From NCBI GenBank assembly GCA_043810615.1, contig JBDROA010000007.1, positions 1,390-65,389 on the forward strand: 64,000 bases of DNA. Direction: 5' to 3'. Under the pieces are notes generated by a model. That model worked only from the letters and a program-made list of their open reading frames with translations. It ran no database searches and was not told where the DNA came from. Below, in pieces: positions 9,481 to 64,000 of this stretch. The DNA is from Actinomycetota bacterium (GTDB lineage Bacteria > Actinomycetota > Acidimicrobiia > Spongiisociales > UBA11373). Position 1 is the stretch's first letter. Every line of letters begins with the position of its first letter. Position numbers and translations under genes: made by a program.

Positions 9481-9481
9481 G

Positions 9482-10258: not shown

Positions 10259-10480
10259 GGGCCCCCTCTCCCGCGGCGGCGGGCGAGGGCGTGGGGTGAG
10301 GGCTTGCGCAGTCCCCCACGGCAGCGGCAGAGTCGGCGGGAAAACACCAGAAGGGCGGTGGAGACAGGTCGCGTTTGCCCTCATCACTCGGCAGCCGCAT
10401 CCCGAGCTCGATTCCGACCGGATCACGGTTGCCGTCTCGCGTCTCTCTCCCATTCGCGGGAGAGGCAGGAAGTGGCTCCC

Positions 10481-10696: not shown

Positions 10697-10818
10697 GGTG
10701 ACTCCCTTCCTCCTGGTCGCGGGGCGGAGCCTGGCTCGGGCCTGTCTCAGGAGTGTGCCAATCCCCCGCCCCGGCACACCCGGCCTTGCGCTCACCGGCA
10801 GGCTGCCGGGTAGCGTCC

Positions 10819-11391: not shown

Positions 11392-11477
11392 ATCGCTCCT
11401 CGGTCGAATTGATGGCGGCATCGTATGGGGATATCGACCCCTACCGCACCCGGCGACGCGCCGGGTAGTGTCCCCTC

Positions 11478-12281: not shown

Positions 12282-13254
12282 CCGACAACGCCCTGCGCGA
12301 GGTGCTGTGCTCCCCCCTCGACGACCTGCGCCCTCCCGGGCGTGGGCGCTGGACCGGGGTCATCACCCTGCTGATCGCAGCGGCCTGCGGGTTCGGGGCG
12401 ATCGCCGCGATTCGTTCCCTCGGCAGCGGCGAGACCGCCCCTACCACGGCGACGACAACCCCGGTGGTCTCATCCTCCACTGCCGCCAACCCCACCCCGC
12501 TGGACGAGGTGGGATTGGAGGCGGTGGCTGCCTGGCGCCAGGGCGGCAAGCTCTACCTGGTGGTGGCCACCACGATCCTGCCGGGAACCGAGCGGGGCGA
12601 GGTCGCCGGAATGCCCGGTGCCCACTGGGTGCTCCGCGTCGGGAAGGCGACCTGCGCCCCGCGACCGCCGAGCTGTTCACTGCGCTGGCCCCCGGCCTGT
12701 TCGCCCTGGAGTTCCCCGACATCGACATCACCGGGGGCGTCGAGCTGCTCGCCTACCCGGCCTCCGAGCTGGTCGAGGGGGTGTTCCCCACCGGGCTCGC
12801 CTCGGCCCAGCTCCCCTGGGAGGGGCCCCTCGCTGCCACCCCCTACCTCCTCGGCGGGGAAGAGGTCGTCATCGACCGGCTCCGGCTGGACGACGGCGGC
12901 GGGGAGATCGTCTGGCACCTGGCCGGGGACTCGGAGGCCCGGGCGGTGGTGAGCGCCGGCGCCACCTACTCCGAGGTGGGAGGCGCGCCGCAGGCCATCG
13001 TCGCCGAGCCCGACCTGCCCCTCGCCTCGCTGGTGGCCTCCCCCACCGCCACCCCGGTCACCCGCTTCGGCGTCGTGCACCTGTTCCACCTCGACGACCC
13101 GGATCAGCCCACCTACCGCAGCCGGTTCTGGGGCGATCCGGAGCGCGTCGTGGCCGTAGAGGCGCTGGACCTGGAACTACTGGTGCGCCTGTACCGGTAC
13201 GCCGCCGAGCCAGTCGTCATCCCGGTGAGCCTCACCGTCACCCCAGAGGACTGA
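12278..13254 (+). pseudogene. frameshifted tandem paralog of 11478..12281 (or an assembly indel)
   Basis: ATG 12278 opens a frame with a TM helix plus Thr-rich linker that reads sensibly to about 12645 (...EVAGMPGAHWVLRVG) and then becomes junk. The -1 frame reads sensibly from about 12650 to the stop at 13254 (...DLRPATAELFTALAPGLFALEFPDIDITGG...TVTPED) and parallels the upstream paralog (EEVSPAAPASFTLTYPGG). Confidence 0.5.
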
Positions 13255-13332
13255 ACCCCCGGCCCGCCTCGTGAGCGGCGTCGTCGCGTAGGGGGGGCCG
13301 GGAGCCACAAGCCGAGCCCCACGTGTGGGCGA

Positions 13333-13350
13333 CCGCAGCCTGGGGTGGGG
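13333..13350 (-). repeat. copy (inverted orientation) of the short dispersed repeat CCCCACCC(T/C)GGGCTGCGG
   Basis: ccgcagcctggggtgggg read directly. About 200 bp from a direct-orientation copy at 13548-13565, so the two form an inverted pair. Confidence 0.55.
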
Positions 13351-13547
13351 TCTACAAGTGTCACCCTTGCTCGGATCGACTTCTCCCCCGCCCCAGCGGG
13401 GGAGATGCCCGAAGGGCAGAGGGGGCAGCCTCCCACCAAGGCCTCGCCACATGCTGCCCCCACCCTTGCCCTCCCCCACCGCCGTGGGGGAGGGAGCAAC
13501 ACCCTGGGGCGCTGCTCACGAAGAACACCATTCAGGGCGTGTTCTCG

Positions 13548-13565
13548 CCCCACCCTGGGGTGCGG
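13548..13565 (+). repeat. copy of the short dispersed repeat
   Basis: ccccaccctggggtgcgg followed by tgtgacattgttatc. Confidence 0.55.
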
Positions 13566-13682
13566 TGTGACATTGTTATCAGAAGACAACCGGCACAAAG
13601 GCGGCCAACCCCCAACCGCAGCCCAAGCAGGAAAAGGTCACCGGTGCCCCGGCTGAGACAGCAGCGACCCGGCACAAGGCCC

Positions 13683-14723
13683 CTACTCGTTGACCAGCAC
13701 CACCCGGTAGCGCGCCTGGTTCCGGCGCACCCGGAGCATCGCCTCGTTCACCTGCGCCATCGGCATCAGTTCGATACGGGGGCTTATGCCATGCCGCTGG
13801 GCAAAGGCCAGCATCTCGCGCATGTCGGCCCGGCTCCCCAGGAACGAGCCGGTGATCGACACCTGGTGCGCCACGAAGTTCACCATGGGGCCGACACCGG
13901 AGCCCCCGACGAGAGGCAGATCGATCGGGGCGAAGGCCGGCAGCACCAGCCGCCCGTTCTTGGTGAGGACCATCACCAGGTTCCCCCAGTCGTTCCCCGA
14001 CTGGGCGGTGCAGAGCAGCAAGTCGAAGCCGAACTCCTTCTCCTCCATGGCCCCCTGATCGGTCGTGAGGAGGAAATGGTCGGCACCTAAAGCCCGCGCT
14101 TCCTCCTCCTTCCCGGGAGAGGAAGACAGCGCCGTCACTTCGCAGCCGAAGGCCTTGGCGAACTGGAGCGCCAGATGGCCCAGGCCGCCGATCCCGACGA
14201 TGCCCACCCGGGTGGAGGCCCCCGCCGTGTACTTGCGCAGCGGCGGATACACGGCGATGCCGGCGCACATGAGCACCGCGGCCGCCTCGGGAGCCATGTC
14301 GGCCGGGAGCGGGTAGGCAAACCGGCCCTCCGCCACCACCGAAGAGGCAAAGCCCCCGTAGGGCGTCCAGGTGCCGCAGTCGGCTATCTGGAGGCAAAGG
14401 TGCTCGTCGCCCGCCCGGCACCACTCGCACTTGCCGCAGCAGCGTCCCTGCCAGCCGACGCCCACCAGGTCTCCCACCTTCAGCCCTGAGACCGCCGGCC
14501 CCAGTTCGGTCACCTGCCCCACGATCTCGTGGCCCGGCATCATGGGGAAGTCGAAGACGCCGAAGTCGCCGTCCACGGCGTGGATATCCGTATGGCAGAC
14601 CCCGCAGTGGGTGATCGCGACCCGGACCTCATCGTCCTTCAGTTCGGGTGCCTCGTAGGACGCCGGCTTCAGACCTTCTCCGGGCCCTTGCGCCGAGTAG
14701 CCCACAAAGGTCGAACGCGACAT
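13683..14723 (-). CDS. zinc-type NADP-dependent alcohol dehydrogenase (cinnamyl-alcohol-DH-like subfamily)
   Basis: ATG 14723 with AGGAGGAGG immediately upstream. MSRSTFVGYSAQ...CGVCHTDIH...GHEIVGQVTELG...GIGGLGHLALQFAKAFG. 346 aa. The ORF-track upstream extension is junk. Confidence 0.9.
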   Translation of the reverse strand: MSRSTFVGYSAQGPGEGLKPASYEAPELKDDEVRVAITHCGVCHTDIHAVDGDFGVFDFPMMPGHEIVGQVTELGPAVSGLKVGDLVGVGWQGRCCGKCEWCRAGDEHLCLQIADCGTWTPYGGFASSVVAEGRFAYPLPADMAPEAAAVLMCAGIAVYPPLRKYTAGASTRVGIVGIGGLGHLALQFAKAFGCEVTALSSSPGKEEEARALGADHFLLTTDQGAMEEKEFGFDLLLCTAQSGNDWGNLVMVLTKNGRLVLPAFAPIDLPLVGGSGVGPMVNFVAHQVSITGSFLGSRADMREMLAFAQRHGISPRIELMPMAQVNEAMLRVRRNQARYRVVLVNE

Positions 14724-14820
14724 GACAACCCCTCCTCCTGCCACGGCTGCCGAAGCCAGCATATGAACCAGATGCGCCGCCCGCCATGAGCGGGACGGAC
14801 CACCGGCCAGGTGGCACGGC

Positions 14821-14838
14821 CCCCACCCTGGGCTGCGG
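14821..14838 (+). repeat. copy of the short dispersed repeat
   Basis: ccccaccctgggctgcgg, lying between the ADH start and the next gene. Confidence 0.55.
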
Positions 14839-14876
14839 CGCGAATCTGTTACCTGAGATCGGCTCGAGCGGACTCG

Positions 14877-14911
14877 GGTAACCCCCGGCCACACCCTGGG
14901 CTGCGGTGTGG
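14877..14911 (+). repeat. extended repeat copy GGTAACCCCCGGCC-ACACCCTGGGCTGCGGTGTGG with an internal 7-bp stem (CCACACC/GGTGTGG)
   Basis: Read directly. The ccacacc...ggtgtgg arms are exact reverse complements flanking a ctgggctgc loop. Confidence 0.55.
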
Positions 14912-15037
14912 AGATGTTAGATACTGGCAGCTTGAGACCACTGCGACCGGACTTCTTCGCAGATGTGGGAGTCGATGCTCGGGCCGCCGGCCTCTAGGCT
15001 TTCGCGGGCCGGCTCATTCGACACGGAGGCATCCGGA

Positions 15038-15838
15038 ATGGAATCTGGTTCCCGAGTGCCTTTGATGGACGCGAATCGTGCGGCGCTCGCCACGGTGGGG
15101 TCACGTTTCGCTCACATGCTCAGGATGGTCCCCGACCCCACCAGGCCTTCGGTCGGGTTCTGGAGTGTCGGGGAGACTGCGGCGCATGTGGCCTCGAGTG
15201 CGTCGTTCTTCCTGGCTGTGGCACGGGGAGAGAAGGAGCCGGAGCGCCTCGATGAAGTCGCAGCCGACAACGCGGCGTTCCTGGCGTCGGACCCGGAGCG
15301 GGATCTTCGCACCCTCGCCGAACGCTTTGAGGCCGGTGAGCGGGCGCTACTGGCCCACGTCGATCGCATCGACGGTGATCCGCCTCTGGAGCTATTCGAG
15401 GGTGTAGAAGTACCCCTGTCCACGCTTCTGGCGGTCGAACTCGCCGAGGTGATCGTCCACGGTTTCGACATCGCCCGGGCGTCGGGTCTCACTTGGCGGA
15501 TCACCCGCGCCGAGGCCGCTCCCGCGGCGAGTGGCATGCTCCCCTTGCTCCCCCATGCCGTAGACCGGGAGGCGGCAGCCGGGCGACGGGCCCGGTTCGA
15601 GCTGCGGATCCGAGGCGGATCCTCCGCCACCCTGGAGTTCGCAGGCGGGACGCTGCGCCTCTCCCCGCCAATCCCACAGGCAGTCGACTGTCGTATCTCG
15701 GCCGACCCGATGGTCTATCTGCTGCTCAGCTTCGGCCGGATCGGGCCGCTGCGACCCATGGTGCAAGGCAAGCTCACCGCCTGGGGGCGCCGCCCCTGGC
15801 TGGCGGCATCCTTCCCCTCGCTGTTCCAAAGCGTCTGA
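15038..15838 (+). CDS. mycothiol-type maleylpyruvate-isomerase N-terminal (DinB-like) domain protein with an SCP2-like C-terminus
   Basis: ATG 15038 with GGAGG 8 nt upstream. ...WSVGETAAHVAS... is typical of the MDMPI_N/TIGR03083 family. The C-terminal ...KLTAWGRRPWLAASFPSLF resembles SCP2-type ends. The ORF-track start at 14963 is probably too early. Confidence 0.65.
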   Translation: MESGSRVPLMDANRAALATVGSRFAHMLRMVPDPTRPSVGFWSVGETAAHVASSASFFLAVARGEKEPERLDEVAADNAAFLASDPERDLRTLAERFEAGERALLAHVDRIDGDPPLELFEGVEVPLSTLLAVELAEVIVHGFDIARASGLTWRITRAEAAPAASGMLPLLPHAVDREAAAGRRARFELRIRGGSSATLEFAGGTLRLSPPIPQAVDCRISADPMVYLLLSFGRIGPLRPMVQGKLTAWGRRPWLAASFPSLFQSV

Positions 15839-15904
15839 GCTGCTGAGCAGGCCGCCCAACGACGCCCGTTCCCAGGCGCGCTCACGAACCGCAGGTTGGC
15901 TAGG

Positions 15905-15986
15905 CGCCGAGATTCGAACCGCGCCTGGTACGGCCAGGGACGCTCGCCCGAGGCCAGGTAACCCCCGACCCCACCCTGGGCTGCGG
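15905..15986 (-). other. tRNA 3'-half-like remnant (GGTTCGAATC T-loop-like) fused to an extended copy of the dispersed repeat
   Basis: The minus-sense reads ...caggcgcGGTTCGAATCtcggcgcc..., but the flanking T-stem pairs only 3 of 5 and no acceptor stem is found. 15958-15986 (ggtaacccccgaccccaccctgggctgcgg) matches the 14877-14906 unit. Confidence 0.3.
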
Positions 15987-15991
15987 CTACC

Positions 15992-16252
15992 TCACCCGAT
16001 CAGGGCTTCCACTCCGGCCGGCCAGGGCTCCCGCGAGCCGAGGCGCTCTCCACAGGGCACGTCGAGCGCACCGGCGAGCAGGCGTCCCACCAGGACCGAG
16101 AGGGCCAACCCCTCGGAGCGGGCCCGCCGGCGCAGGGCCTCGGCCACCTCGGCCGGAACCAGCGCCACCAGGCGCTCCCGGGGCTCGCACCAGCCGACGG
16201 GCCGGGGGGCACCCCAGTCGAGAATCGCTGCGGTGTTGTGGGCGGCTGCCAT
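15992..16252 (-). CDS. small ribbon-helix-helix (CopG/Arc/MetJ-type) DNA-binding protein
   Basis: 86 aa. ...RLVALVPAEVAEALRRRARSEGLALSVLVGRLLAG... matches the RHH beta-strand plus two-helix pattern. Divergent from the small gene at 16394. Confidence 0.55.
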   Translation of the reverse strand: MAAAHNTAAILDWGAPRPVGWCEPRERLVALVPAEVAEALRRRARSEGLALSVLVGRLLAGALDVPCGERLGSREPWPAGVEALIG

Positions 16253-16273
16253 TGGGTACTAGCCAAGCAGATT

Positions 16274-16314
16274 GCGCGCGGATAGTGAAGGATTTCGCGC
16301 TCTCAGCGCGCGGA
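16274..16314. promoter_or_regulatory. two direct copies of the GC palindrome-containing GCGCGCGGA, 32 bp apart, in a divergent promoter region
   Basis: Read at 16274-16282 and 16306-16314, between the RHH gene (minus) and the 16394 gene (plus). Confidence 0.3.
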
Positions 16315-16393
16315 GCGTGACGAACCCCGCCCCCCTGGCACCGCCGGCGCCGAACCGGTACCCTCATACGAGAACGCTCTGTAGGAGGAGGAC

Positions 16394-16567
16394 ATGGAGC
16401 TCCGCAAAGGCATGCGGGTCAAGGAGCTCACCAAGAAGGTGGGCCAGGTGGCTCGCACCGGAACCATCCTCGCCGTCCGCGGCTCGACCGTGGATGTGCG
16501 GTGGGACGACGGCCACACCAGCTCGCTGAGTCACGGGTTCCTGTTCCCCATCGCCGGAGACGGGTAA
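16394..16567 (+). CDS. 57-aa conserved micro-protein (DUF1918-like, tentative)
   Basis: ATG 16394 preceded by GTAGGAGGAGGAC (strong RBS). MELRKGMRVKELTKKVGQVARTGTILAVRGSTVDVRWDDGHTSSLSHGFLFPIAGDG, stop TAA. It is below the ORF-track length cutoff. Confidence 0.6.
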   Translation: MELRKGMRVKELTKKVGQVARTGTILAVRGSTVDVRWDDGHTSSLSHGFLFPIAGDG

Positions 16568-16575
16568 CCGCAGGC

Positions 16576-16860
16576 TCACGGCGCGGAGGCTTCCGCCCCC
16601 GGGATCCCCGCCTCGTCGGAATGGGCGCGGCGGTGGCGGCGTACCAGCATCTCCCGCTGCTGGTCGACGTCTCCCTTGATCCGCTCCAGTCGGGCGGGGC
16701 CCTCGAGACGGAGGCGGAACCGGCCCTGCATGCGGAAGTGGCCCTCCGGGGGCACCGCGCCTCCGGGCTGGTAGTCGGGTTCCTCGCGCTTCACCGGGCA
16801 GTGGACCCGGTGACCTTGGCTTGGGGAAGGTAGGTCGGCGCGTCGGCGGAGTCTCGACAT
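16576..16860 (-). CDS. hypothetical protein
   Basis: 94-aa ORF with mixed, non-junk composition (...HCPVKREEPDYQPGGAVPPEGHFRMQGRFRLRLEGPARLERIKGDVDQQREMLVRR...). Convergent with the 16394 gene. No family recognised. Confidence 0.3.
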   Translation of the reverse strand: MSRLRRRADLPSPSQGHRVHCPVKREEPDYQPGGAVPPEGHFRMQGRFRLRLEGPARLERIKGDVDQQREMLVRRHRRAHSDEAGIPGAEASAP

Positions 16861-17237
16861 GAAGCCGGTGCCTCTGACCTGTTTGATGACCCGGTTGCGG
16901 CCCTCTCAGCCTGCTCCCCGGCTTGCGAACCGGCCGGGAGAGCGGTTCGGCAGTTCGGGTCACCACCTTGGAGGCACTTCTGGTCGGTGGTGTTGTTCTG
17001 GTGGGCCGATCCGAGCCTTCGGCCATCTGACGGCGTTCGGTGACGGCTCAATCGTCCCGCCGGCCGTCGGGACGGCTCCCACGGGATCGACGACACCCGC
17101 CACCGCCTGACGTCCCCCTCGGGTCGGGCGATCCTTGGCGTGGGTGACGCGTCTCCCTCGCCCGTCCGCCCCGTCCGACGATCCCACCATCAGATGGGTT
17201 CACCCCGCCGCCCTCTTGGGCTCCCCGCACCACAACA

Positions 17238-18668
17238 CTAGGGCGTCCGCTGCGCCGCAATCGCGTCGATCCCTCGCGCAAGGGCAGCCTCGTTCAGCGC
17301 GATCAGATCGCCCTTCGACCGCAGCGCTCCCCTGATAGCGGTCAGAAACGAAGCCGGAGGGAACAGGCTTGTGGCTGCTTGAAGAGCACCGAGGGCGACG
17401 ATGTTCTTGACCATCTTGCTGCCGATCTCTCCAGAGACCGCGGTCATAGGGACCCCGTAGGCGCGCACTCCCTCAGCGAGATCGGGAACCTCGCCGATGA
17501 CCGTGCTGTCGTACACGATCGTGCCGCCGGCCTGCACCGCGGGTCCGAATTTGCGGAGGCTCGGCCCGTTGAAGGCCACCAGTATGTGGGGTGCGGGAGC
17601 TGCAGGAGAGAGCACCTCGTGCTCGGCGATGTGGACGTCGGCGTACGAGGTTCCCCCACGCGATTCCGGCCCATAGCTGGGAATGTGGGTCGAGTCGAAC
17701 CCCTCGTTGATGGCGGCCCGGGCCAGGAGAAGGGCAGCGGTTTGGGCCCCATCGCCGCCAGCCCCGGCCAGTTTCAGGGCGATGTCATCATGGGCAATGT
17801 GGGCCGGGAACCCGCTTGCGAAGCGGGGCGGCGCCTCGGCATGGCTTTCGATCTGGTCGAGCAGTGCCGCCGCCTCGAAGTTGGGTGGATTCACATCGGG
17901 CCAGGGCTCCCTGTCGCCGAGGTCCTTCTTCACTCCGAGCGGGAAGACGGGCAGCATCCGCTCGCGGACCCAAGCCTCGGCCTCCGTCGGATCGACGTGC
18001 CACTGCACCGGACACTCCGAAAGCACTTCGACCAGTGCGAAGCCTCGCTTCTCCACCTGCATCTGAAGGGCCTTGCGGATGGCGTGCCTGGCGCGGTTGC
18101 GGCGTTGGTTGTCGAACAGCGCCACACGCTCCACGTACACCGGCCCATCCAGAGCGGCGAACAACTCGGCCACCTTCATCGGTTCCCCCATGAAGCGAGG
18201 GCGCCCCTCAGGGGTGGTGGACGTCTCCTGACCCAGCAGAGTCGTCGGTGCCAACTGGCCACCGGTCATGGCGTAGATGCCGTTGTTGACGAAGATCACC
18301 GAGATGGGGATGCCCATCTGCGCGGCATAGATGATCTCGGCCAGTCCGATCGACGCCAGATCGCCGTCTCCCTGATACGACACCACGACTGCATCGGGGT
18401 TGGCCACCTTGTGACCCAGCGCCACGGCGGGCGCCCTGCCGTGAGCCGCCTGGGTGTTCCCCACATCCAGGTAGTAGTAAAGGAACACACTGCACCCCAC
18501 CGGGGAAATGGCAACGGTGCGGTCCTGCACCCCCAGTTCCTCGATGGCCTCGGCCAGGTACTTGTGCACCAGGCCGTGGCCGCATCCGGGGCAGTAGTGA
18601 GTGCTGTGGGCCTTGAGGCCCTCGGCGTGGGCATGCCGCTCGAAGGTCTCGTAGAGGACGCCGCTCAC
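17238..18668 (-). CDS. 2-oxoacid:ferredoxin oxidoreductase, fused beta (TPP-binding) and gamma subunit
   Basis: 476 aa. The N-terminal half reads ...HYCPGCGHG...GDGDLASIG...NNGIYAMTGGQ (TPP/Fe-S beta subunit). The C-terminal half has the gamma-subunit fold (...LLARAAINEGFDSTHIPSYGPESRGG...). Confidence 0.9.
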   Translation of the reverse strand: MSGVLYETFERHAHAEGLKAHSTHYCPGCGHGLVHKYLAEAIEELGVQDRTVAISPVGCSVFLYYYLDVGNTQAAHGRAPAVALGHKVANPDAVVVSYQGDGDLASIGLAEIIYAAQMGIPISVIFVNNGIYAMTGGQLAPTTLLGQETSTTPEGRPRFMGEPMKVAELFAALDGPVYVERVALFDNQRRNRARHAIRKALQMQVEKRGFALVEVLSECPVQWHVDPTEAEAWVRERMLPVFPLGVKKDLGDREPWPDVNPPNFEAAALLDQIESHAEAPPRFASGFPAHIAHDDIALKLAGAGGDGAQTAALLLARAAINEGFDSTHIPSYGPESRGGTSYADVHIAEHEVLSPAAPAPHILVAFNGPSLRKFGPAVQAGGTIVYDSTVIGEVPDLAEGVRAYGVPMTAVSGEIGSKMVKNIVALGALQAATSLFPPASFLTAIRGALRSKGDLIALNEAALARGIDAIAAQRTP

Positions 18669-43907: not shown

Positions 43908-44708
43908 TCACCCGCTTCTGCTCTCCGATGTCCATACTTCCCCAAACCTCCTCGCCTCATCCGTAAGGTACTCCACTGCGCACACCGGCAGGCCGGGACG
44001 GCCGGCGCGCACCCCGCCGGCCCTCTGGGCTTCCTCCCACCCGAGCCCCGGAGCGAACAGCCGGGCAATCCATTTCGGGTCGGATCGGCACACCAAGGCA
44101 CCGTCCCGCATCAGGGCCACCGCCGGCACCTCGGCCCGCTGCGCCCGGTAGCCGTGCTCGTGCTCGATCACCTTGCCGCTGAGGGCTACCAGGCCGTAGA
44201 TGATGCCGGGCCACGCTCCCGGCCGGGCCCCCCAGAGCGCCCCGGCGTCCTTGAAGGCATAGATGCCGCAGCGACAACACGGGGCGTCGTGCGGCGCCCC
44301 CGGCCCGCGGGGGCAGCGGGCCTCCAGTCGCGGCTCTTCCCAGACCTGCACCACGCCGCGCACGCCCAGCGAGGTGAGCCGCCACATGCGGAACCCCAGA
44401 ATGGGCGCCGGCGACCAGAACGCCCCCGCCGACCGCCCCCCGGCGGAGCGCGCCGGGTCCGGGGCCGGCGGCTCCACCGTCGTCTGCGCCCGCACCTGCT
44501 CCAGTTCCAGGATCTGCCGGCGAAGCGCCTCGGCCCCCTTCTGGCTCAGCACACGCGAGAGGGCCCTCCACCCCCGCTCGACCGCCGACGGCAGGGGCTC
44601 GCCCCATGTCACGCCGGGCAACGGCCCCTCGAGCCCGGAGGGCTCACCCCCTCCCGGGCCACTGTGGAACCACCCACCCGGAGGCCGCGGACCAGCCCCC
44701 GGCATCAT
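43908..44708 (-). CDS. uncharacterised protein with a coiled-coil N-terminus and a conserved Cys/His-rich C-terminal domain (gene C of the operon)
   Basis: ATG-ATG at 44708/44705 with GGGGAGG 4 nt upstream. It overlaps the TGA of the upstream gene (ATGA). The C-terminal domain reads FWSPAPILGFRMW...EARC...HDAPCCRCGIYAFK...LSGKVIEHEHGYRAQRA. A clear paralog lies at 51847..52905. Confidence 0.65.
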   Translation of the reverse strand: MMPGAGPRPPGGWFHSGPGGGEPSGLEGPLPGVTWGEPLPSAVERGWRALSRVLSQKGAEALRRQILELEQVRAQTTVEPPAPDPARSAGGRSAGAFWSPAPILGFRMWRLTSLGVRGVVQVWEEPRLEARCPRGPGAPHDAPCCRCGIYAFKDAGALWGARPGAWPGIIYGLVALSGKVIEHEHGYRAQRAEVPAVALMRDGALVCRSDPKWIARLFAPGLGWEEAQRAGGVRAGRPGLPVCAVEYLTDEARRFGEVWTSESRSG

Positions 44709-45700
44709 CGGGCCTCCCCGAACCACGACCGCCGCCCGCCCGCCTGCTGCCCTTCTGAGGGCATCCCTGCCCCGGCCGCCTCGGGGGCCCACAGCGCCGC
44801 CAGGTGCACCAGGGAGGAACCGACGACCAGGGCCGACACCACAGCGCCGGGGGCGGTGAGGAACACCACCTCGCCCAGGCCAACGGCGGCATGGGTGCTG
44901 GCCACCCCTCCCGATAGCGCCGCCACCCGGGCCACCCCCTCAGCGGCGAGGCCACCGCCCGGCCCGCCGAGCCCCACCCGGGCGTCGGCGGCATAGGAAC
45001 CCACCAGGCCCCGCCATAGGAACGCCAGCGTGTCGGGGCGGTCGAACACGTCGAGCGCCAGCGGCCGCGCCCCCACCAGGGCAAGCACGCCGCGTTGGCC
45101 GGCGGCCGGCCGCAGCGGCACGGTGATCTCGTCGATGGCCCCGGCCCGCCGGCGGTGCACCTCGGAGTACAAAGCCGTCGAGGAGTCCACCTCGTGCAGG
45201 CTGAGGTGGCGATCGACCGCGCCCCAGACCTCCCCCTGGTGGGAGCGGTACCCGACACCCCGGCGGGCCTCGTGCTGCACCCCGATGTTCTTGGCTGCCC
45301 TGACCCGGGGGGAGGCGTGGAGGTCCTCGCGCGCCATGGGCCGGGCAGCCCCCCAGCGGCCGGCCTCGACGCACGAGACCGGGATGGTCAGCGTGGCCTG
45401 GGCCGGCACCAGGACCGTGGTGTTCAGCGTGCGGGTCTGCCTGAGCCCGCCTAGCACCTCCCCTTCCAGGAGCAGCACCGGTCGGCCGGCGTGGTTGACG
45501 ACCTGCAGTTCGGGCACCGAGCCACCCCCCACTTCCTCGACCAGCACGACGCCTTCCGCCACCGCCCCGGCAAACAGCCGGTACGGAACGGCCTCACCGT
45601 CGTGGAAGACCGGCACCATGGTGAGCGGGCCCGACTGCTGCGGCTCGCCGAAGCGCAGGCCGCTCCCGAGCATCGTGGTTACGGTGTCGCCTGCCGTCAT
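44705..45700 (-). CDS. conserved hypothetical protein (gene B; resembles the database family ARPP-1/DUF6569, tentative)
   Basis: 331 aa. ...MVPVFHDGEAVPYRLFAGAVAEGVVLVEEVGGGSVPELQVVNHAGRPVLLLEGEVLGGLRQTRTLNTTVLVPAQATLTIPVSCVEAGRW... Its start overlaps the stop of gene A (ATGA at 45697-45700). Confidence 0.7.
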   Translation of the reverse strand: MTAGDTVTTMLGSGLRFGEPQQSGPLTMVPVFHDGEAVPYRLFAGAVAEGVVLVEEVGGGSVPELQVVNHAGRPVLLLEGEVLGGLRQTRTLNTTVLVPAQATLTIPVSCVEAGRWGAARPMAREDLHASPRVRAAKNIGVQHEARRGVGYRSHQGEVWGAVDRHLSLHEVDSSTALYSEVHRRRAGAIDEITVPLRPAAGQRGVLALVGARPLALDVFDRPDTLAFLWRGLVGSYAADARVGLGGPGGGLAAEGVARVAALSGGVASTHAAVGLGEVVFLTAPGAVVSALVVGSSLVHLAALWAPEAAGAGMPSEGQQAGGRRSWFGEAR

Positions 45701-48139: not shown

Positions 48140-49183
48140 CTAGGCCGCCGCTGCGGGCTTGCGCTTGCGAGCCAGCATGAAGCCACCGCCGAGGGCGATC
48201 AGGGCTCCCAGGCCGATGGCGGCGTAGGGGATGATCGTCCCGAAGAGTGACACCATCATCTTGCCGTCCTCGGCGTCCTTCTTGGCATCGGCGATCGCCT
48301 GGTCGGAGGCCTGGTAGGAGAGGCGGAAGACCTCGACCTCCGTGGTGGCCAGAGCCAGCAGGCGCGCTTCGTCCTTGACGTAGTCGATTATCACCCCGGT
48401 GGTTGGCTCCACCCAGTACTCGGTGGCGTACTGGTACACGTAGCTGAGGGGCACCGGGTCCGGCAGCAGGGGCAGCAGCGCCGCCAGTCCCTGAAGCGTC
48501 TCCGGCGGCAGGCCCAGTTGCGGCGCCAGGCCCTCGATCGTGGTCTTGGGCAACGAGGGCGGGAACATGGCCAGCACGGCCGGGTCGCGCAGGGGTTGCG
48601 AGTCGGACTCCGAGCTGAAGTGGTAGGTGGTGATCCCCTCATGCTCCTCGACACCTAGGTACTCCACCGGCACCAGCGCCTGGTAGTCATCGCTCCAGCC
48701 CTGGTAGTCACGCTTCTCCGTGCCGATGGGGAAGCCGATCACCAGGCCCCGGCGCGTGTCCAGGACGCCGGTTTCGGAGGTGAAGTTGGGGATCTCCTCC
48801 GTGGTCTTGCGGTCGATGGCGTACCAGTAGGTCGTGTGCTGGCCGTCGGCATCGGTGTTCAGGCCCGGCAGGGGTTGGCCGTCGGGACCCTTCACCTGGA
48901 CCTGCTCGCGGACCAGAGCCTTGTTCCCCTCCACTTGCTCGGTGGTCACGTGGCGGTCGACCGCCACCGGCACATCGGAGAAGAAGAGGTTCGCCAGGTC
49001 CATGGTGGCCAGGGCCCCCGGATTGAGCATGGTCACCAGGGTGCCCTCATAGGTCCGGGTGCTGTCGACGTCGTCGGGCCATACCGCCATCATCGGCAGG
49101 ACGGCCAACTTGAGTACCAGGCCGGCGGCAACGAGCAGCAGGCCGAGGAACACGACCAGCAGGCCGCCGATCTTTCCCTTCAT
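48140..49183 (-). CDS. DUF3068-family actinobacterial membrane protein (PorA-like)
   Basis: ATG 49183 with GGAGGAAG upstream. N-terminal TM (LLVVFLGLLLVAAGLVL), about 290-aa extracytoplasmic domain, C-terminal TM (IPYAAIGLGALIALGGGFML) plus a basic tail. Confidence 0.7.
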   Translation of the reverse strand: MKGKIGGLLVVFLGLLLVAAGLVLKLAVLPMMAVWPDDVDSTRTYEGTLVTMLNPGALATMDLANLFFSDVPVAVDRHVTTEQVEGNKALVREQVQVKGPDGQPLPGLNTDADGQHTTYWYAIDRKTTEEIPNFTSETGVLDTRRGLVIGFPIGTEKRDYQGWSDDYQALVPVEYLGVEEHEGITTYHFSSESDSQPLRDPAVLAMFPPSLPKTTIEGLAPQLGLPPETLQGLAALLPLLPDPVPLSYVYQYATEYWVEPTTGVIIDYVKDEARLLALATTEVEVFRLSYQASDQAIADAKKDAEDGKMMVSLFGTIIPYAAIGLGALIALGGGFMLARKRKPAAAA

Positions 49184-58206: not shown

Positions 58207-58959
58207 TCAGGCGACCGACTGCGCCTGCCAGTCGGCGACCGTCCCCTGGATCCATTCCTGGGCCCGGCCGAGGACCGCAGCGGCGTCGTCGCCGAAGCGA
58301 GGAATGGGATCGCCGAAGCGGATGCGGATCCTGGTGCCGAAGGGTATGGGAAACAGGCGGTCGCGGAGCAACTTCCAAGAACCGTCGATGGCGGTGGGCA
58401 CCACCGCCAGGCGGTGGGCGGCCGACAGCAACGCCTCGCTCCCCGCCTGCTTGAACTGCCTCAGCCGTCCGTCGCGGCTGCGGCTGCCCTCCGGGAAGAT
58501 GACCACGCTGACGCCGCGATCCTGGGCGGTGCACGCCATCGTCGTGATCGCCTCCACCGCCTGGGCGCGGTCGCGGCGGTTGATGACGGCGTTGCCGCCC
58601 CAGCGCAGGTTGAGCGAGATGCTGGGAATCCAGCGCCGCAGTTCCCGCTTGGCCACATACTTGGGGTAGTTGGTGAACAGCAACCCGCCGATGAAGACCG
58701 GGTCGAACATGCTCTGGTGGTTGGAGATGATGGCGTAGCCGCGGCCCGACTCGATGGCCGCCGACCGTTCCACTTCCACCCTGGTGCCGCAGATGCGGAG
58801 CAGGGCCATCAGGGTCCGCTGCAGCGCCGCCATCACCGCCTCGAAGGCCCGCATGCTGAACGGCCGGACGACCCGGCCGGCGATGTCGAACAGCAGGAGG
58901 CACAGGCCGAAGGCGATCAGGAACGGGACGGTGAAGAGCCAATCGCGGACGCGGCGCAC
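58207..58959 (-). CDS. 1-acyl-sn-glycerol-3-phosphate acyltransferase (PlsC-type)
   Basis: N-terminal TM. NHQSMFD (HxxxxD) and FPEGSRS blocks. Confidence 0.85.
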   Translation of the reverse strand: MRRVRDWLFTVPFLIAFGLCLLLFDIAGRVVRPFSMRAFEAVMAALQRTLMALLRICGTRVEVERSAAIESGRGYAIISNHQSMFDPVFIGGLLFTNYPKYVAKRELRRWIPSISLNLRWGGNAVINRRDRAQAVEAITTMACTAQDRGVSVVIFPEGSRSRDGRLRQFKQAGSEALLSAAHRLAVVPTAIDGSWKLLRDRLFPIPFGTRIRIRFGDPIPRFGDDAAAVLGRAQEWIQGTVADWQAQSVA

Positions 58960-59066
58960 GCCGGCAGGTTAGGGCGCCGCCGGAGGCTACGCCGGCCCCC
59001 GGCCGAGGTTTCCGCACCCGTTCGTTCCCGACGGCGCCGCCCGGCCGTTCAATGCCCCGGCCGGCA

Positions 59067-59381
59067 TCAGCATCCCGCGGCCACCCGCAGAGCGCGGCAC
59101 ACCTCGGCCATGCGGGCCGGGGACAGCCGGGCCTGAAGGCCGGCGAAGTAGGCCTTGTCGGCAAGGGTGACGTTGTCGAGGGTGACGGCGCACTCCGTCG
59201 GCATGCCGTCGTCGTGGTCCAAGAGCACCTCGGTCGGGAGGCCCCGGATACGCCGGGTAACGGGGGCTACCAGCAGGGTTCGCAGCACCGGCACGGCGGC
59301 CTCACGGGTCAGCACCAGCACCGGGCGCCGTTTGCCGGGCATCTCCACCCACCAGACCTCCCCGCGGTGGGGATGGCTCAC
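59067..59381 (-). CDS. type II toxin, MazF/PemK (CcdB-fold) endoribonuclease family
   Basis: MSHPHRGEVWWVEMPGKRRPVLVLTRE...; 104 aa. Its start overlaps the antitoxin stop (ATGA). Confidence 0.85.
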   Translation of the reverse strand: MSHPHRGEVWWVEMPGKRRPVLVLTREAAVPVLRTLLVAPVTRRIRGLPTEVLLDHDDGMPTECAVTLDNVTLADKAYFAGLQARLSPARMAEVCRALRVAAGC

Positions 59382-59626
59382 CAGGGCTCCTCCTCGATGA
59401 GGGCCCGGGTGGCCGCTGCGGCCAGCGCTACCTCGTCGTCAGTCTGCGGCCTCCGGGTGTAGCCCTCCACCATGCGCCGGTCGAGATCCTCCTGCTTGTG
59501 GGCAGTGAGCAGGGCCTCGAGGGCAGCACGCACGACCTCGGTACGGGAGGCGTACCGGCCCTGCGCCACGAGGACATCCACCGCGGCAACCACCCGATCT
59601 GCCAAGCGGAAGGCCACCGTCGTCAT
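59378..59626 (-). CDS. ribbon-helix-helix antitoxin (MazE/CopG-like)
   Basis: From ATG 59626: MTTVAFRLADRVVAAVDVLVAQGRYASRTEVVRAALEALL... A TATACT-like -10 element lies just upstream. Confidence 0.75.
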   Translation of the reverse strand: MTTVAFRLADRVVAAVDVLVAQGRYASRTEVVRAALEALLTAHKQEDLDRRMVEGYTRRPQTDDEVALAAAATRALIEEEPW

Positions 59627-59672
59627 ACGCCAAGTATAACGCTGCGTATGGCGGCCGGGAAGAGCCCCCGCT

Positions 59673-60806
59673 TCAGCGCGGGACGGCACTTCCCCCCAGC
59701 TTGGCCGCCACCGAGGCTGCCCCGCGCAAAGCGGTGCCGTCGGCCCCCACGGCGCTGAAGACCCGCCGGCCGGCCCGCGCCTCGGCGATCATCCCGGTCA
59801 GCAGGCCGTCCCAGCCGAGGGGCGGGTCGACCCACAGGTAGACGCTCAGGCTGCCGGGGATCGTGTTGATCTCGTTGACCCACACCTCGCCCCCTTGCTC
59901 GAGGAAGTCGATGCGGGCCACCGAGCGCACGGCGCATAGGCCGGCCACAGCGCGAGCCATCTCCCGAATGCGCTCCGCCAGGGCGTCGGGGATCTGGGCC
60001 GGCAGTTCCCGCGGCGAGGAGACGAGGCCGCCGCCCCCCGGGGAGAGGTACTTCTGAGCGTAGGTGTAGATGCCCCCTCTCGACCCTGCCCCCTTCCGCT
60101 CGGGGCGTTCGATGGTCGACAGATCCAGGGAGGGGTAGGTGCGCACCGCCACATTCAGGTCGCGGCCCTCCGCCAGGAACGGTTCGGCCACCGCCCCATC
60201 GCGCAACAGCGGGCTGGAAGCGGCCAGCGCCCGGGCGGTGGCGGCGTCCTCCACCACCTCGATGCCCAGCGAGGAGCCGCCGAAGCGGGGCTTCACTACA
60301 TACGGCGGGGCGAAGGGCAGGGGCTCCGGTTCCCGGGTCACCGCCACCCGGGGCAGGGTGGGCAGCCCCGCCCGGGCGGCCAGCGCGGTGAAGGCCAGCT
60401 TGTCCATCCCCAGGTAGGCCCCCACCAGGCTGGGGCCGGTATAGGCCAGGCCGGCCAGGTCGAAAGCGGCCTGGATGGTGCCGTCCTCACCGGGGCCGCC
60501 GTGGCAGCAGTTGACCACCACATCGAGAGGCAGCGGCTTGTGCTTGCGGAGGAAGCCGCCATCGGGCCCGGCTACCAGTTCCAGAGGAGTGGCCCCGCGC
60601 GGCACCCCCTCGGCAAAGGCCAGCGCCTCGAGACGGGGGTCGACGGCGTAGAACTCGCCGACCTTCGACCAGTAGAGGGCGGTCACTACCTTGGCGGCCC
60701 GGGTGAGCGACCGGGTCGCCTGGAGCCCGGTGAGGATGCTGATGTCGTGCTCCGGGGAGGGCCCCCCGAAGAGCACCGCCGGTCGGAGGTCGCTGGGGAT
60801 GGTCAT
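59673..60806 (-). CDS. ddl: D-alanine--D-alanine ligase (ATP-grasp)
   Basis: MTIPSDLRPAVLFGGPSPEHDISILTG...; ATP-grasp C-terminal ...ARIDFLEQGGEVWVNEINTIPG... 377 aa. Confidence 0.9.
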   Translation of the reverse strand: MTIPSDLRPAVLFGGPSPEHDISILTGLQATRSLTRAAKVVTALYWSKVGEFYAVDPRLEALAFAEGVPRGATPLELVAGPDGGFLRKHKPLPLDVVVNCCHGGPGEDGTIQAAFDLAGLAYTGPSLVGAYLGMDKLAFTALAARAGLPTLPRVAVTREPEPLPFAPPYVVKPRFGGSSLGIEVVEDAATARALAASSPLLRDGAVAEPFLAEGRDLNVAVRTYPSLDLSTIERPERKGAGSRGGIYTYAQKYLSPGGGGLVSSPRELPAQIPDALAERIREMARAVAGLCAVRSVARIDFLEQGGEVWVNEINTIPGSLSVYLWVDPPLGWDGLLTGMIAEARAGRRVFSAVGADGTALRGAASVAAKLGGSAVPR

Positions 60807-60848
60807 GGCCGGGGATGTTACGGCAGGCCGGGGCGATCCTCCGGCCGC

Positions 60849-62357
60849 CTACGGGTAGTGGTCGGGGAGGTCGTTCTCGTACAGGACGCCGTCGCCCTCT
60901 CCCAGGGAAGCGCTCACCCAGGCCACCGCCTCGGGGCGGTGGGCCACAGCGCGCACCCGGGCGTTCCCCTGCCGCCCCCCGGCCAGCAGGGCCCGGCGGT
61001 TGGTGCGGCCCACCACGACGAGGTCCGACACCCGGGTCGCGGCGAAGGCGGCCAGCGCCCCGTTCTCCGCCGCCTGGATGCGGCCCAACTCCACCATCCC
61101 GGGGGTCACCACCACGGTGCGCCCCGGCGCCGCGGCGATCAGGCGCTCCACCGCCGCCCGGGCCCCGGAGGGGTTGGAGTTGTAGGTATCGTCGATGATG
61201 AGCACACCGGCCTCGCTGCGCCCCTCGACCCCGCGGTGCTGCGGTCGGGGAAGGCTCCCCAGGCGCTCCCCGATGCGGGCCACCGGCACCCCCAGGGCGT
61301 GGGCTATCCCCGCGGCGCAGGCCACGTTCATGGGGAACACGCCCCCGGCGGGCAGGCGCCCTGCCTCCTCGCCCGCTACCCGCACCACCAGGGCATCTCC
61401 CTCCGCCAGCACGCTCACCTCGGCGTCGGTCGAGGCAGTCGAGCACCGCAGCACCCGCACCCCGGGCCGCCCCTCCACCGCCCGGCGCACCAGGGGATCG
61501 TCCCAGTTGGCCACGGCCGCCCGCGCTCCCTCGAGGATCTCGGCCTTCGCCCGGGCGATAGCCTCGAGCGAGCCGAAGCGCTCCAGGTGCACCGGGCCAA
61601 CCGCCGTCATCACCGCCACGTCGGGAGGGATCCAGCGGCAGAGGCCGGCAATCTCGCCAGGGCCGTAGGTGCCCATCTCGGCGATAAGCACCTCCACCCC
61701 GGGATCGAGGCCGTCGTTGATGGCCCGCGCCAGACCGAGGCGGTTATTGAACGAGGCCGGGGACGCCACTACGTGGAGGGTGCCGGCCACCAGGTGCCGG
61801 GCGTACTCCTTGGTGCTGGTCTTGCCGAACGAGCCGGTGATCGCCACCACCGTAGGGGCGGCGGCGCGCAGGCGGCGGGCGGCCCCCTCGACGAAGGCCC
61901 GGCTGAGCCGCCGCTCCAGCGGGGCGGTGGCCGCCAGGCCCAGGTCCACCGCCTGGGGCACGCCAAGGGCCGCCGCCACCGCCCCGGCGGCAAAAGAGCC
62001 GAAGGCAAACCCCGCCGCCGCCGCCCCGGCGAAGGCCACAGCCGCCACCCCCACCAGGCGCCGCAGCCGCGCCGTCCAGGCCAGTTCGGCGGTCCGTCCC
62101 CGCAGGCCCAGGCCGATCGGCCAGGCGAGCAGGCCTGCCGCCGCCGGCAGGGCCGCGTACGGCCACCAGAGAGTGGCTGCCGCTGCTCCGGCGGTAACCG
62201 CACCCAGCGCCAGGTTGAGGAGGGAGGAACGGAGCCAGCGCCCCTGGAAGCGGGTCACCGACCAGGGTATGTAGTGCTCACGCTGGCCCACCCGCAGCCA
62301 GCGGAGGGCGGCCCCCAAGCCCGCAGCCAGCAGCACCCAGGGAGCGGCCGCGGTCAC
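60849..62357 (-). CDS. Mur-ligase-family protein (MurF-like) with a roughly 150-aa N-terminal transmembrane region replacing the canonical N-domain
   Basis: P-loop ITGSFGKTSTKE. The central and C-terminal Mur ligase domains follow. The N-terminus has several TM helices (WVLLAAGLGAALRWL..., LLNLALGAVTAGAAAATLWW..., VGVAAVAFAGAAAAGFAFGSFAAGAVAAAL). Confidence 0.85.
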   Translation of the reverse strand: MTAAAPWVLLAAGLGAALRWLRVGQREHYIPWSVTRFQGRWLRSSLLNLALGAVTAGAAAATLWWPYAALPAAAGLLAWPIGLGLRGRTAELAWTARLRRLVGVAAVAFAGAAAAGFAFGSFAAGAVAAALGVPQAVDLGLAATAPLERRLSRAFVEGAARRLRAAAPTVVAITGSFGKTSTKEYARHLVAGTLHVVASPASFNNRLGLARAINDGLDPGVEVLIAEMGTYGPGEIAGLCRWIPPDVAVMTAVGPVHLERFGSLEAIARAKAEILEGARAAVANWDDPLVRRAVEGRPGVRVLRCSTASTDAEVSVLAEGDALVVRVAGEEAGRLPAGGVFPMNVACAAGIAHALGVPVARIGERLGSLPRPQHRGVEGRSEAGVLIIDDTYNSNPSGARAAVERLIAAAPGRTVVVTPGMVELGRIQAAENGALAAFAATRVSDLVVVGRTNRRALLAGGRQGNARVRAVAHRPEAVAWVSASLGEGDGVLYENDLPDHYP

Positions 62358-63100
62358 TCCAACCCCCCCGCCGGGCCGGGGAGATGCTCACCGATGGCCG
62401 CGGCCAGCGCCTCGGGGGCCTGGGCCGGGACGTCGTGGCCCACCCCGGCGAGCAGAGTGAGCCTCCCAGCGCCGATCAGGGTCAGGGCCCGGGTGGCCAC
62501 CGCCGGCGGCACCACCCGGTCCTCCTCCCCCCACACCAGGTGCACCGGGCAGGCGAGGGCGCACAGTTGCTCCTCGTAGGACTCCTCCACCACCCGCACC
62601 AGCACCTGCCGCATCACCCCCGAGGCGGCCCGGTAGTCGCCCGACCCGAAGCGGCGGCGGGCCTGCTCCAGGGTGTGCTCCGGCACCAGGCGCAGGCGCC
62701 GGGCGAGGCGCAGGGAGCGGTACCGGGGCGACACCCGGGGCCGGGCCCCGGGGAGGCGCACCAGGGGCACGCCGGCGAGCACCAGGGCGGCGACGGCTTC
62801 GGGCCGTCGCAGCGCCAGGTGCACCGCCACCCGCCCACCGAAGGAATGCCCCACGACCACCACGGGACCGCCGAAAACCTGCAGCGCCGGTTCCACCAGA
62901 GCGGCGTAGCCAGCAGCCCCCACGGCCTCGGCAGGCGCCGGAGTCGCCCCGAAGCCGGGCAGGTCCGGGGCCAGGCCCCCGGCGGCGGCGAGCACCCCGG
63001 CCCAATCGCGCCGGTCCCGCCCCCAGCCGTGCAGGGCGAGCACCGGAGCGGCGCCGCCGAAGCGCTCGGCGAAGAGGCCACCGATCAGCTCGAGGGGCAT
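62354..63100 (-). CDS. alpha/beta-fold hydrolase
   Basis: ATG 63100 with GGAGGA 4 nt upstream. MPLELIGGLFAERFGGAAPVLALHGWG...VVVGHSFGGRVA... Its stop overlaps the MurF-like start (ATGA). The ORF-track 5' extension to 63475 is Val/Ala junk. Confidence 0.8.
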   Translation of the reverse strand: MPLELIGGLFAERFGGAAPVLALHGWGRDRRDWAGVLAAAGGLAPDLPGFGATPAPAEAVGAAGYAALVEPALQVFGGPVVVVGHSFGGRVAVHLALRRPEAVAALVLAGVPLVRLPGARPRVSPRYRSLRLARRLRLVPEHTLEQARRRFGSGDYRAASGVMRQVLVRVVEESYEEQLCALACPVHLVWGEEDRVVPPAVATRALTLIGAGRLTLLAGVGHDVPAQAPEALAAAIGEHLPGPAGGLE

Positions 63101-63257
63101 GGATCCTCCAGGTCGCGGGGGTGGCGCCCCTCCGTCGCGGCGACGGCCGGGCCCATCCGCAGAGCCAATGGTACGCCCCCCGGAGGAGACTCCCCGGCCG
63201 GCAGGTTCCCTCCCGGCTGCTCCCCGGCGGTGTTGAATGGCACCCGGAGGTCCACTC

Positions 63258-64000
63258 ATGCGCCGCATCGTCCTCGTCCTGATCGTCCTCGCCGGGCTCA
63301 CCGCCGCCTGCGGCGACGACGACACCCTCAGCTCCACTACCACTGCCGCCACCAGCACCTCCGGAGGTGAGACGAGCACCACCACCGCCGCCGGGAGCAC
63401 TACCTCGTCGGTTTCCACGACCGAGGCCACGACCACCACGGCGGCAGTGACGACGACCACGGTGCCTGGGGCCACTCCCGTGGACTACTCCGGCTATTGC
63501 GTGCGCGGCACCGCCTCCAACGATGCCCTGAACGTGCGCTCCGGGCCGGGGACCGGCTTCGACGTGGTCGGAGAGCTCGCCTGGAACGCCGCCGACATTC
63601 CCGCCGGCGGTTTCGCCGCCCCCGACCCCCGCGGCCGCCTTTGGTTCCTGGTGGGCCACGAGGGCGGCATGGGCTGGGCAGCGAGCTGGTACCTGGAGCC
63701 GGCCCCGTGCGGAGCCGCCGTCATCACAGTGGCCCCGCTCGCCGGGCCCGACCTGCCCGATGCGCTGGCCGGCAGCCTGGTTCCCTGGACCGGGGTGAAC
63801 GAGACCTGGGCTCTGGCTCTGTACGCCCCCGACTGGGATGGCCCGCGTGCCCTCTACCTGCTCAGCCCCTTCGGCGACATCTTCGAGGTGTTCGCCTGGA
63901 CCGCAGGAACCGTCCGTCCCTACGCCCTCTACGACTGGCGCCCCGACGGCAAGGCGGTGCTCTCCCTCGTCGGCGTCGGGGACGGCGATAGGGAGATCCG
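63258..64000 (+). CDS. Thr-rich lipoprotein with an SH3b-like domain; 3' end beyond the window
   Basis: ATG 63258 with GGAGG 7 nt upstream. MRRIVLVLIVLAGLTAACGDD (lipobox), TTT linker, ...YCVRGTASNDALNVRSGPGTGFDVVGELAWN... (SH3_3-like). It is open to the window end and absent from the ORF track. Confidence 0.6.
   Translation, partial: MRRIVLVLIVLAGLTAACGDDDTLSSTTTAATSTSGGETSTTTAAGSTTSSVSTTEATTTTAAVTTTTVPGATPVDYSGYCVRGTASNDALNVRSGPGTGFDVVGELAWNAADIPAGGFAAPDPRGRLWFLVGHEGGMGWAASWYLEPAPCGAAVITVAPLAGPDLPDALAGSLVPWTGVNETWALALYAPDWDGPRALYLLSPFGDIFEVFAWTAGTVRPYALYDWRPDGKAVLSLVGVGDGDREI

Follow-up and report, generated by a model that had tools for sequence, protein, structure and literature searches.

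A stretch of 64 kb of an actinobacterial contig (JBDROA010000007.1, assembly GCA_043810615.1, class Acidimicrobiia; 72% GC), which is called the window over its whole length, carries on its minus strand an operon of three genes encoding an alpha/beta hydrolase, a Mur ligase with a predicted membrane domain and a Ddl (D-alanine--D-alanine ligase). Our results indicate that this operon is probably the housekeeping module by which its lineage carries out the MurF step in the synthesis of peptidoglycan precursors, in a variant form. This reading is supported by the core of the ligase, which is MurF-like by sequence as well as by fold and retains the catalytic set of Mur ligases, and by related triads of genes which are located at the position of murF in the division and cell wall (dcw) clusters of other bacteria and whose ligases match the one of the window over the full length. 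Further support comes from the conservation of the triad, the orthology of the hydrolases and their fusion to the ligase, the intact catalytic triad of the Ddl, and neighbouring genes of peptidoglycan precursor synthesis or housekeeping function in two related loci (L030 and L001). The features of the operon are as follows:

62354..63100, minus strand: alpha/beta-fold serine hydrolase, 248 amino acids (aa), first gene of the operon (Pfam, synteny, fusions)
61908..62357, minus strand: predicted membrane domain at the N-terminus of the ligase, covering residues 1 to about 150 (hydropathy, AlphaFold, alignment)
60849..61907, minus strand: MurF-type ATP-dependent ligase core with central and C-terminal domains (Pfam, NCBIfam, PDB, Foldseek)
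59673..60806, minus strand: D-alanine--D-alanine ligase, 377 aa, DdlA-like long form, third gene of the operon (Pfam, active-site alignment)
63101..63257, no strand assigned: intergenic stretch from the hydrolase start to a divergent lipoprotein gene, presumed to hold the promoter of the operon (by position)

The gene content and strand given in a first-pass annotation, made from the sequence of the window alone, were confirmed by Pfam and by a coding-type GC content at third codon positions of 0.86-0.91 in all three open reading frames (ORFs). The hydrolase gene (63100..62354) overlaps the ligase gene (62357..60849), which starts with GTG, so that stop and start codon share four bases as GTGA; the ligase gene is followed by ddl (60806..59673) after a gap of 42 bases. 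The overlapping coupling of hydrolase and ligase had been recognised before, with the motif given as ATGA; this form is found in some relatives, e.g. L036, and not in the window. For the hydrolase, an alternative start at 63475 was rejected as a spurious upstream extension without support from homologues, and the ATG at 63100 is the start supported by homology.

The ligase comprises 502 aa (MFH1329185.1) and shows Pfam matches to Mur_ligase_M (PF08245, E 4e-26) and Mur_ligase_C (PF02875, E 1e-11) only. No N-terminal Mur domain, neither PF01225 nor any other Pfam family, was detected on residues 1-165. The top NCBIfam model was that of MurF (TIGR01143) with 191.1 bits at a curated cut-off of 288.6, ahead of MurD (49.6 bits) and MurE (19.8 bits). 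By sequence, the closest solved structure is the MurF 3zl8 (E 4e-30). The AlphaFold model of the protein, obtained with a mean predicted local distance difference test (pLDDT) score of 87.8 and a predicted template modelling score of 0.82, retrieved MurF structures in a Foldseek search as well, with 4cvm as best match (E 3e-21), followed by 3zl8 and 4qf5. Both kinds of alignment to MurF structures span only about 360 columns, starting from about residue 150. Within this core, the P-loop TGSxGKT (TGSFGKTSTK in the window), E227, H257 and K271 show no variation within the family and can be aligned with their counterparts in Escherichia coli MurF, and the motifs H257-L-E-R, DDTYNSNP and TPGMVELG are conserved. 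At the C-terminus the family carries the signature LYENDLPDHYP, of which ENDLPDxY is invariant.

In place of the MurF N-domain, residues 1 to about 150 are predicted to form five transmembrane helices, and the proposal of the first-pass annotation that a multi-spanning N-terminus had replaced this domain is borne out by hydropathy, by the AlphaFold model and by the missing Pfam match. The hydropathy averaged over the family reveals hydrophobic blocks at 1-18, 46-85 and 102-146, separated and followed by loops rich in lysine and arginine at 19-45, 86-101 and 147-170. AlphaFold places helices at 4-26, 46-61, 66-78, 96-118 and 122-166, and the fifth helix continues unbroken into the ligase domain of the model. 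Following the positive-inside rule, the N-terminus should be located outside, and both conserved loops as well as the ligase domain in the cytoplasm. These loops carry the motifs RWLRVAQREHY (19-29), RF..RW (36-41) and GRT..L.WT.R (87-97) in Acidimicrobiia. An alignment of 18 sequences from several phyla shows no exchange at residues Q25, Y29, W41, T95 and R97, while R36, P146 and E148 are nearly invariant. Searched on their own, the N-terminal domains of four proteins of the family remained without a Pfam match at E<=10.

The family is large, and the copy in the window is an ordinary member of it. More than 120 proteins with 50-88% identity to the ligase have an equal length and architecture. 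A scan of genomes with the ligase delivered at least 583 matches, and the best 80 of these, which are the related loci inspected in this study, almost all carry the label Acidimicrobiia or Actinomycetota, apart from a few with other bin labels. In essentially every one of these loci with sequence at this position, the hydrolase gene lies directly upstream of the ligase gene. About 70 of the 80 loci have the ddl gene directly downstream; in three it stands 0.5-5.6 kb away, and in a few sponge-associated genomes the flank contains no ddl. Since this gene order recurs in nearly all 80 loci, the operon is conserved far beyond chance. In one metagenome-assembled genome (MAG; binchicken_co31_359), a full hydrolase-ligase-Ddl triad was found on each of two contigs (L022 and L026), which could be due to strain heterogeneity in the co-assembly or to a true duplication.

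Beyond the closest relatives, 1,208 of 1.84 billion cluster representatives matched the ligase core at E<=1e-30 in an exhaustive search. The best 150 were all of the transmembrane form, with an N-terminal extension of about 150-200 residues, and contained no canonical MurF. Distant members with 30-40% identity, found in Candidatus Poribacteria, Chloroflexota (Ktedonobacterales, Dehalococcoidia) and further lineages, retain the motifs Q.E.Y...RFL.W, KPL..T.R..R and ENDLPD.Y. The hydrolase is also paired with the ligase in Poribacteria-like, Ktedonobacterales and other contigs. In addition, two natural fusion proteins, P0372 with 853 aa and P0307 with 809 aa, combine the transmembrane domain, the ligase and the hydrolase in this order; they provide an independent link between both enzymes and place the hydrolase in the cytoplasm. 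In L088 (11693-14923) and L089 (3345-4598), from Ktedonobacterales and Poribacteria, a gene of the MR_MLE family (dipeptide-epimerase type) is located near the hydrolase-ligase pair, and the Ddl is not adjacent but 2-3 kb away.

The hydrolase belongs to the alpha/beta-fold enzymes according to Pfam (Abhydrolase_6, E 1e-19; Abhydrolase_1, E 1e-15; Hydrolase_4), with a further weak match to the S33 serine aminopeptidase family. No NCBIfam model reached its cut-off, so that no specific subfamily can be named. Ten orthologues were compared from Acidimicrobiia, Poribacteria-like contigs, Ktedonobacterales and both fusion proteins. In all of them the HGWG oxyanion motif, Ser86 within GHSxGG (GHSFGG), Asp194 and His222 are invariant, as are GSxDY (152-156) and VNE (171-173), which are specific for this family. 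An active site preserved across phyla suggests a conserved and probably active enzyme rather than a decayed passenger. The AlphaFold model of the hydrolase, built from an alignment of three sequences, reached a pLDDT of only 50.5 and was discarded.

For the Ddl, Pfam reports Dala_Dala_lig_N (PF01820, E 3e-19) and Dala_Dala_lig_C (PF07478, E 3e-18). Residues E15, S150, K215-Y216, R255, D257 and E270 of E. coli DdlB correspond to E19, S178, K252-Y253, R298, D300 and E312 in the window, and the Glu-Ser-Tyr triad typical of D-Ala-D-Ala ligases is retained. As all catalytic residues are present, the protein looks like a true D-Ala-D-Ala ligase. A C-terminal extension of about 45 residues (59673-59810; GADGtALRgAaSvAaKLG) is conserved in the copies of Acidimicrobiia, whereas E. 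coli DdlB lacks it. Two of the 80 genomes contain another ddl of DdlB-like type, which is shorter (320 aa, with 33% identity to E. coli DdlB) and follows directly after the ddl of the operon in convergent orientation (L036, 7753-8715, minus strand; L063, about 12665-13582, minus strand).

The position of the triad in dcw clusters carries much of the argument. In L090 (1.77 Mb) and L091 (5.8 Mb, circular) the genes are arranged as rsmH-ftsL-ftsI-murE-[hydrolase, transmembrane ligase, Ddl]-mraY-murD-ftsW-murG-murC-ftsQ-ftsA, and the only Mur ligases of these clusters are MurE, MurD, MurC and the transmembrane form. In L084 and L085 (circular, about 4.9-5.1 Mb) the triad again lies between murE and mraY, the order being read here from rsmH to mraY; blastp against E. 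coli gave 37% identity for MurE and 49% for MraY, the latter from L084. These two contigs are called Poribacteria-like; a 557-aa protein of their match group has a cluster sibling named Ca. Poribacteria by NCBI. Within the approximately 21 kb read around the triad in L084, L090 and L091, none of which is actinobacterial, no canonical murF was found, and in two of the three (L090 and L091) the dcw cluster is otherwise complete. The ligase of the window aligns with the ligases at this position over the full length including the N-terminal motifs (31-34% identity, 196-211 bits); with E. coli MurF it reaches 79 bits over the core only. From this context, the triad of these contigs corresponds in position to murF plus ddl.

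In the window itself the situation is different. Pfam analysis of about 50 further ORFs revealed no mur, fts or mraY genes, and tblastn with the E. coli dcw proteins matched the ligase and Ddl genes only, in agreement with the earlier statement that no division or cell-wall cluster is visible nearby. The same search, which also covered 82 related loci, gave no dcw cluster in any of them. Neither in the window nor in the 80 related loci does the operon occupy the position between murE and mraY, and in these related loci it has moved out of the dcw cluster. In L001 the operon stands beside rpmB, a gene of the Dak2/FakA family, recG, rsmD and coaD, a neighbourhood which we take to resemble that of the housekeeping ddlA in Mycobacterium tuberculosis. 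In L030, a MAG of Acidimicrobiales (11639-18323), it is followed by genes for a VanX-like D-Ala-D-Ala dipeptidase, an alanine racemase (Alr), PgeF (YfiH), a MurD-like ligase and a 460-aa MurL-like protein. The last two look like the MurD2/MurL system, an alternative route by which D-Glu is incorporated in Xanthomonas; the pair of murL and murD was found again in at least 30 metagenome contigs (L092-L129).

A few further clusters showed how murE and mraY can be arranged. A metagenome scan seeded with the MurD-like protein of L030 led to L103, a high-GC contig where murE is directly followed by mraY and a degenerate MurD-like remnant with a lost P-loop stands between mraY and a murL-murD2 pair (5237-9850). 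Its MraY is 70-76% identical to that of Nocardioides, and L103 is therefore uninformative on the dcw cluster of Acidimicrobiia. In the complete genome of Nocardioides dongkuii (CP059903.1; L134, 1487545-1508636) and in L133, murE of the dcw cluster is likewise directly followed by mraY, without murF there; the named relatives of the transmembrane ligase include no Nocardioides sequence. In L132, a metagenome contig of 47% GC (5486-18473), the order rsmH-ftsI-murE-mraY-ftsW-murG...ftsZ was observed, and neither murF nor murD was detected in this cluster.

In the mechanism which we propose, the Ddl would make D-Ala-D-Ala, and the ligase, anchored by five helices at the inner face of the membrane next to MraY, would use ATP to join this dipeptide to the N-acetylmuramic acid (MurNAc)-tripeptide precursor. 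The helical domain would stand in for the usual N-domain which binds uridine diphosphate (UDP), and the residues Q25, Y29, R36, W41, T95 and R97 at the cytoplasmic face may take over the binding of the acceptor from it. The hydrolase, apparently competent for catalysis, would act together with the ligase as an obligate partner. Our best guess is that it would trim or edit the acceptor, for example in an LD-carboxypeptidase- or esterase-like step which exposes the carboxylate of the tripeptide. In this scheme, D-Ala-D-Ala as the added substrate and the peptidoglycan tripeptide precursor as the acceptor are the most plausible assignments, and the genome of the window would lack a canonical murF.

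Some observations weigh against the operon being the housekeeping MurF module. The ligase stays below the curated cut-off of TIGR01143 and passed no other NCBIfam model of MurF, and the Ddl reaches 168.7 bits with TIGR01205 at a cut-off of 245.65. ENDLPDxY occupies the place of the C-terminal KGSR-type motif of canonical MurF, which could mean a different nucleophile or a different binding mode. Since murE abuts mraY in N. dongkuii too, an empty murF position alone proves little, and the organism of the window may possess a canonical murF elsewhere, as the absence of murF was read around the triads of other phyla. The low scores and the altered C-terminal motif, as well as the lost N-domain, the location outside of dcw in the window and all 80 related loci, the second ddl of two relatives and the MR_MLE-type epimerases near the Ktedonobacterales and Poribacteria loci, would all suit an accessory system: canonical murF and ddl would be encoded elsewhere, and the triad would serve to attach D-Ala-D-Ala, or a dipeptide related to it, to another target, be it an envelope polymer of non-canonical type, a stem peptide in modified form or a lipid-linked glycopolymer. 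The first-pass annotation had suggested a role of this kind, in non-canonical D-Ala-containing polymers or stem peptides. We consider it improbable, because the triad takes the murF position in L084, L090 and L091 with no other murF in the cluster, is conserved throughout the class as is typical of core genes and not sporadically, retains the canonical catalytic residues of Ddl, and is not accompanied by genes for glycosyltransferases or polymer export. For the window, an exotic pathway for D-Ala polymers is thereby no longer suggested. The same annotation had asked for separate canonical copies and had named these genes being the only ones as what would speak against its reading; the regions around the three dcw triads argue for a single murF-type gene, which is indirect for the organism of the window, and the copies of L036 and L063 show that ddl is not always single.

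The nature of the acceptor leads to a further alternative, in which the ligase would act after MraY on the MurNAc-tripeptide of lipid I or lipid II, as MurT/GatD acts on lipid II, and the last steps would be inverted. To our knowledge, the other Mur-family ligases without N-domain (MurT, FPGS, CphA, PgsB) all use non-nucleotide substrates; this speaks against plain UDP-MurNAc-tripeptide as acceptor and makes a lipid-linked MurNAc-tripeptide a serious possibility. It would also agree with a transmembrane domain in place of the UDP-binding N-domain, with polar and basic residues that are invariant and sit where the head group of a polyprenyl diphosphate would be expected, at the cytoplasmic face of the membrane, with the continuous helix that joins the fifth transmembrane segment to the ligase domain, and with the neighbourhood of mraY in dcw clusters. 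However, the tethering could simply channel UDP-MurNAc-pentapeptide to MraY, MraY itself is ordinary in these loci as judged from its similarity to the E. coli enzyme in L084, and the role of the hydrolase is likewise left unexplained. On balance we regard this order of steps as rather unlikely. The same caution applies to its broadest form, a doubtful model for Acidimicrobiia, parts of Chloroflexota, Ca. Poribacteria and others: here, a membrane-integrated ligase without recognition of the UDP handle would replace the soluble MurF and add D-Ala-D-Ala to lipid-linked MurNAc-tripeptide after MraY, with the hydrolase preparing or proofreading the acceptor. The least probable explanation is a recycling or repair function besides a separate de novo MurF, in which the hydrolase would trim recycled or damaged stem peptides from tetrapeptide to tripeptide and the ligase would re-add D-Ala-D-Ala. 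It could draw on the serine hydrolase, an obligate partner with an intact active site that is joined to the ligase by coupling or fusion, on the weak S33 match and on the VanX-like dipeptidase and MR_MLE genes near some relatives, but the triad in dcw position without other murF argues for a de novo enzyme, and linkage of the operon to genes for recycling, of the permease, AmpD/AmpG, Mpl or LdcA-like type, was not found.

With the housekeeping MurF module as the preferred reading, a comparison with known systems can be made. MurF is regarded as a universal, soluble enzyme of three domains and as an antibiotic target. The ligase of the window shares with it (TIGR01143; PDB 1GG4, 3ZL8, 4CVM, 4QF5) the central domain for ATP binding and the C-terminal domain, the P-loop, Glu and His for the binding of Mg, the conserved Lys and the motifs DDxYNxNP and ELG, as well as the Ddl as partner and, in the family members of L084/L085, L090 and L091, the location between murE and mraY. 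In contrast to the soluble N-domain of about 80 residues which holds UDP in MurF, it has a predicted five-helix domain of about 150 residues with invariant motifs of its own; it also differs in ENDLPDxY at the place of the KGSR-type end, in the obligate serine hydrolase partner and in its score below the curated cut-off.

The lipid II isoglutaminyl synthase MurT/GatD (PDB 6GS2, 7Q8E) is comparable in that MurT has no nucleotide-binding N-domain, works at the membrane and depends on an obligate partner from the same operon; it thus provides a functional analogy for a lipid-linked acceptor. However, MurT itself is not a membrane protein, its partner GatD is a glutaminase and not an alpha/beta hydrolase, and the similarity to the ligase of the window is weak and restricted to the central domain (E 2e-4), the latter having PF02875 as C-terminal domain and no DUF1727. 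An identity with MurT was rejected on these grounds, including the lack of a GatD-type partner. PgsB/CapB, the ligase subunit of poly-gamma-glutamate synthetase, belongs to the Mur ligase superfamily, is anchored in the membrane and has no UDP-binding domain; its partners are PgsC and PgsA, whereas the ligase of the window is found with Ddl and hydrolase. It was excluded as an identity, as no significant NCBIfam or PDB match was obtained and the nearest families are MurF, then MurD and MurE. CphA gave no NCBIfam or PDB match either, and the ATP-grasp protein of the operon is a separate, canonical Ddl and not fused as in CphA.

Fusions and a fixed gene order are also known among Mur enzymes themselves, where they suggest a physical coupling of consecutive steps. 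A survey of Mur gene arrangements and chimeras from 2023 (PMC10214165) describes MurE-MurF, MurG-MurC, MurC-MurB, MurC-Ddl and MurD-FtsW. In the family of the window, the corresponding coupling is seen in the ligase-hydrolase fusions and in the order hydrolase-ligase-Ddl. A search for the terms 'hydrolase' and 'transmembrane' in this survey gave no hit. In the literature searched, including this survey, we found no description of a membrane-anchored MurF or of a MurF-associated hydrolase, and literature beyond it may hold one. The membrane-anchored, hydrolase-paired form of MurF is thus apparently undescribed, and annotation pipelines name these ligases MurF or 'Mur ligase family protein'; the subfamily is uncharacterised.

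If several large phyla indeed use a membrane-embedded ligase together with a hydrolase, the textbook boundary between the cytoplasmic and the membrane stage of peptidoglycan synthesis would not be universal, and the homology-based label MurF would hide a mechanistically different enzyme. Conclusions from genomes in which murF is missing from dcw would need to be read again in these lineages. Q25, Y29, W41, T95 and R97 as well as the triad of the hydrolase would then be targets for mutagenesis in a search for the acceptor. If the acceptor should be lipid-linked, the final stage of precursor synthesis would be reordered.

The operon begins with the hydrolase gene, since a lipoprotein gene starts divergently at 63258. 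This gene (63258-64000, plus strand) encodes a lipoprotein-type signal peptide (..LTAAC) and a long linker rich in Thr and Ser, and runs past the end of the window. A scan of 58900-63400 for the sigma-70 consensus revealed no promoter-like site, and the consensus scan of the operon gave one terminator-like site, located inside the ligase gene and at chance level. On the other side, ddl is separated from a gene for a PlsC-type acyltransferase by a type II toxin-antitoxin pair (59067-59689, minus strand), consisting of a PemK/MazF toxin (59067-59381) and a ribbon-helix-helix antitoxin (59378-59689), whose true start is probably an ATG close to 59624. As L001 lacks the pair at this place, it is probably a local insertion. 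At a greater distance, one ORF with a PorA domain (PF11271, E 1e-46) and another with an ARPP-1 domain (PF20208, E 1e-67) were detected on the minus strand (48140-49183 and 44705-45700), the latter adjoining a protein without family assignment and a helix-turn-helix regulator.

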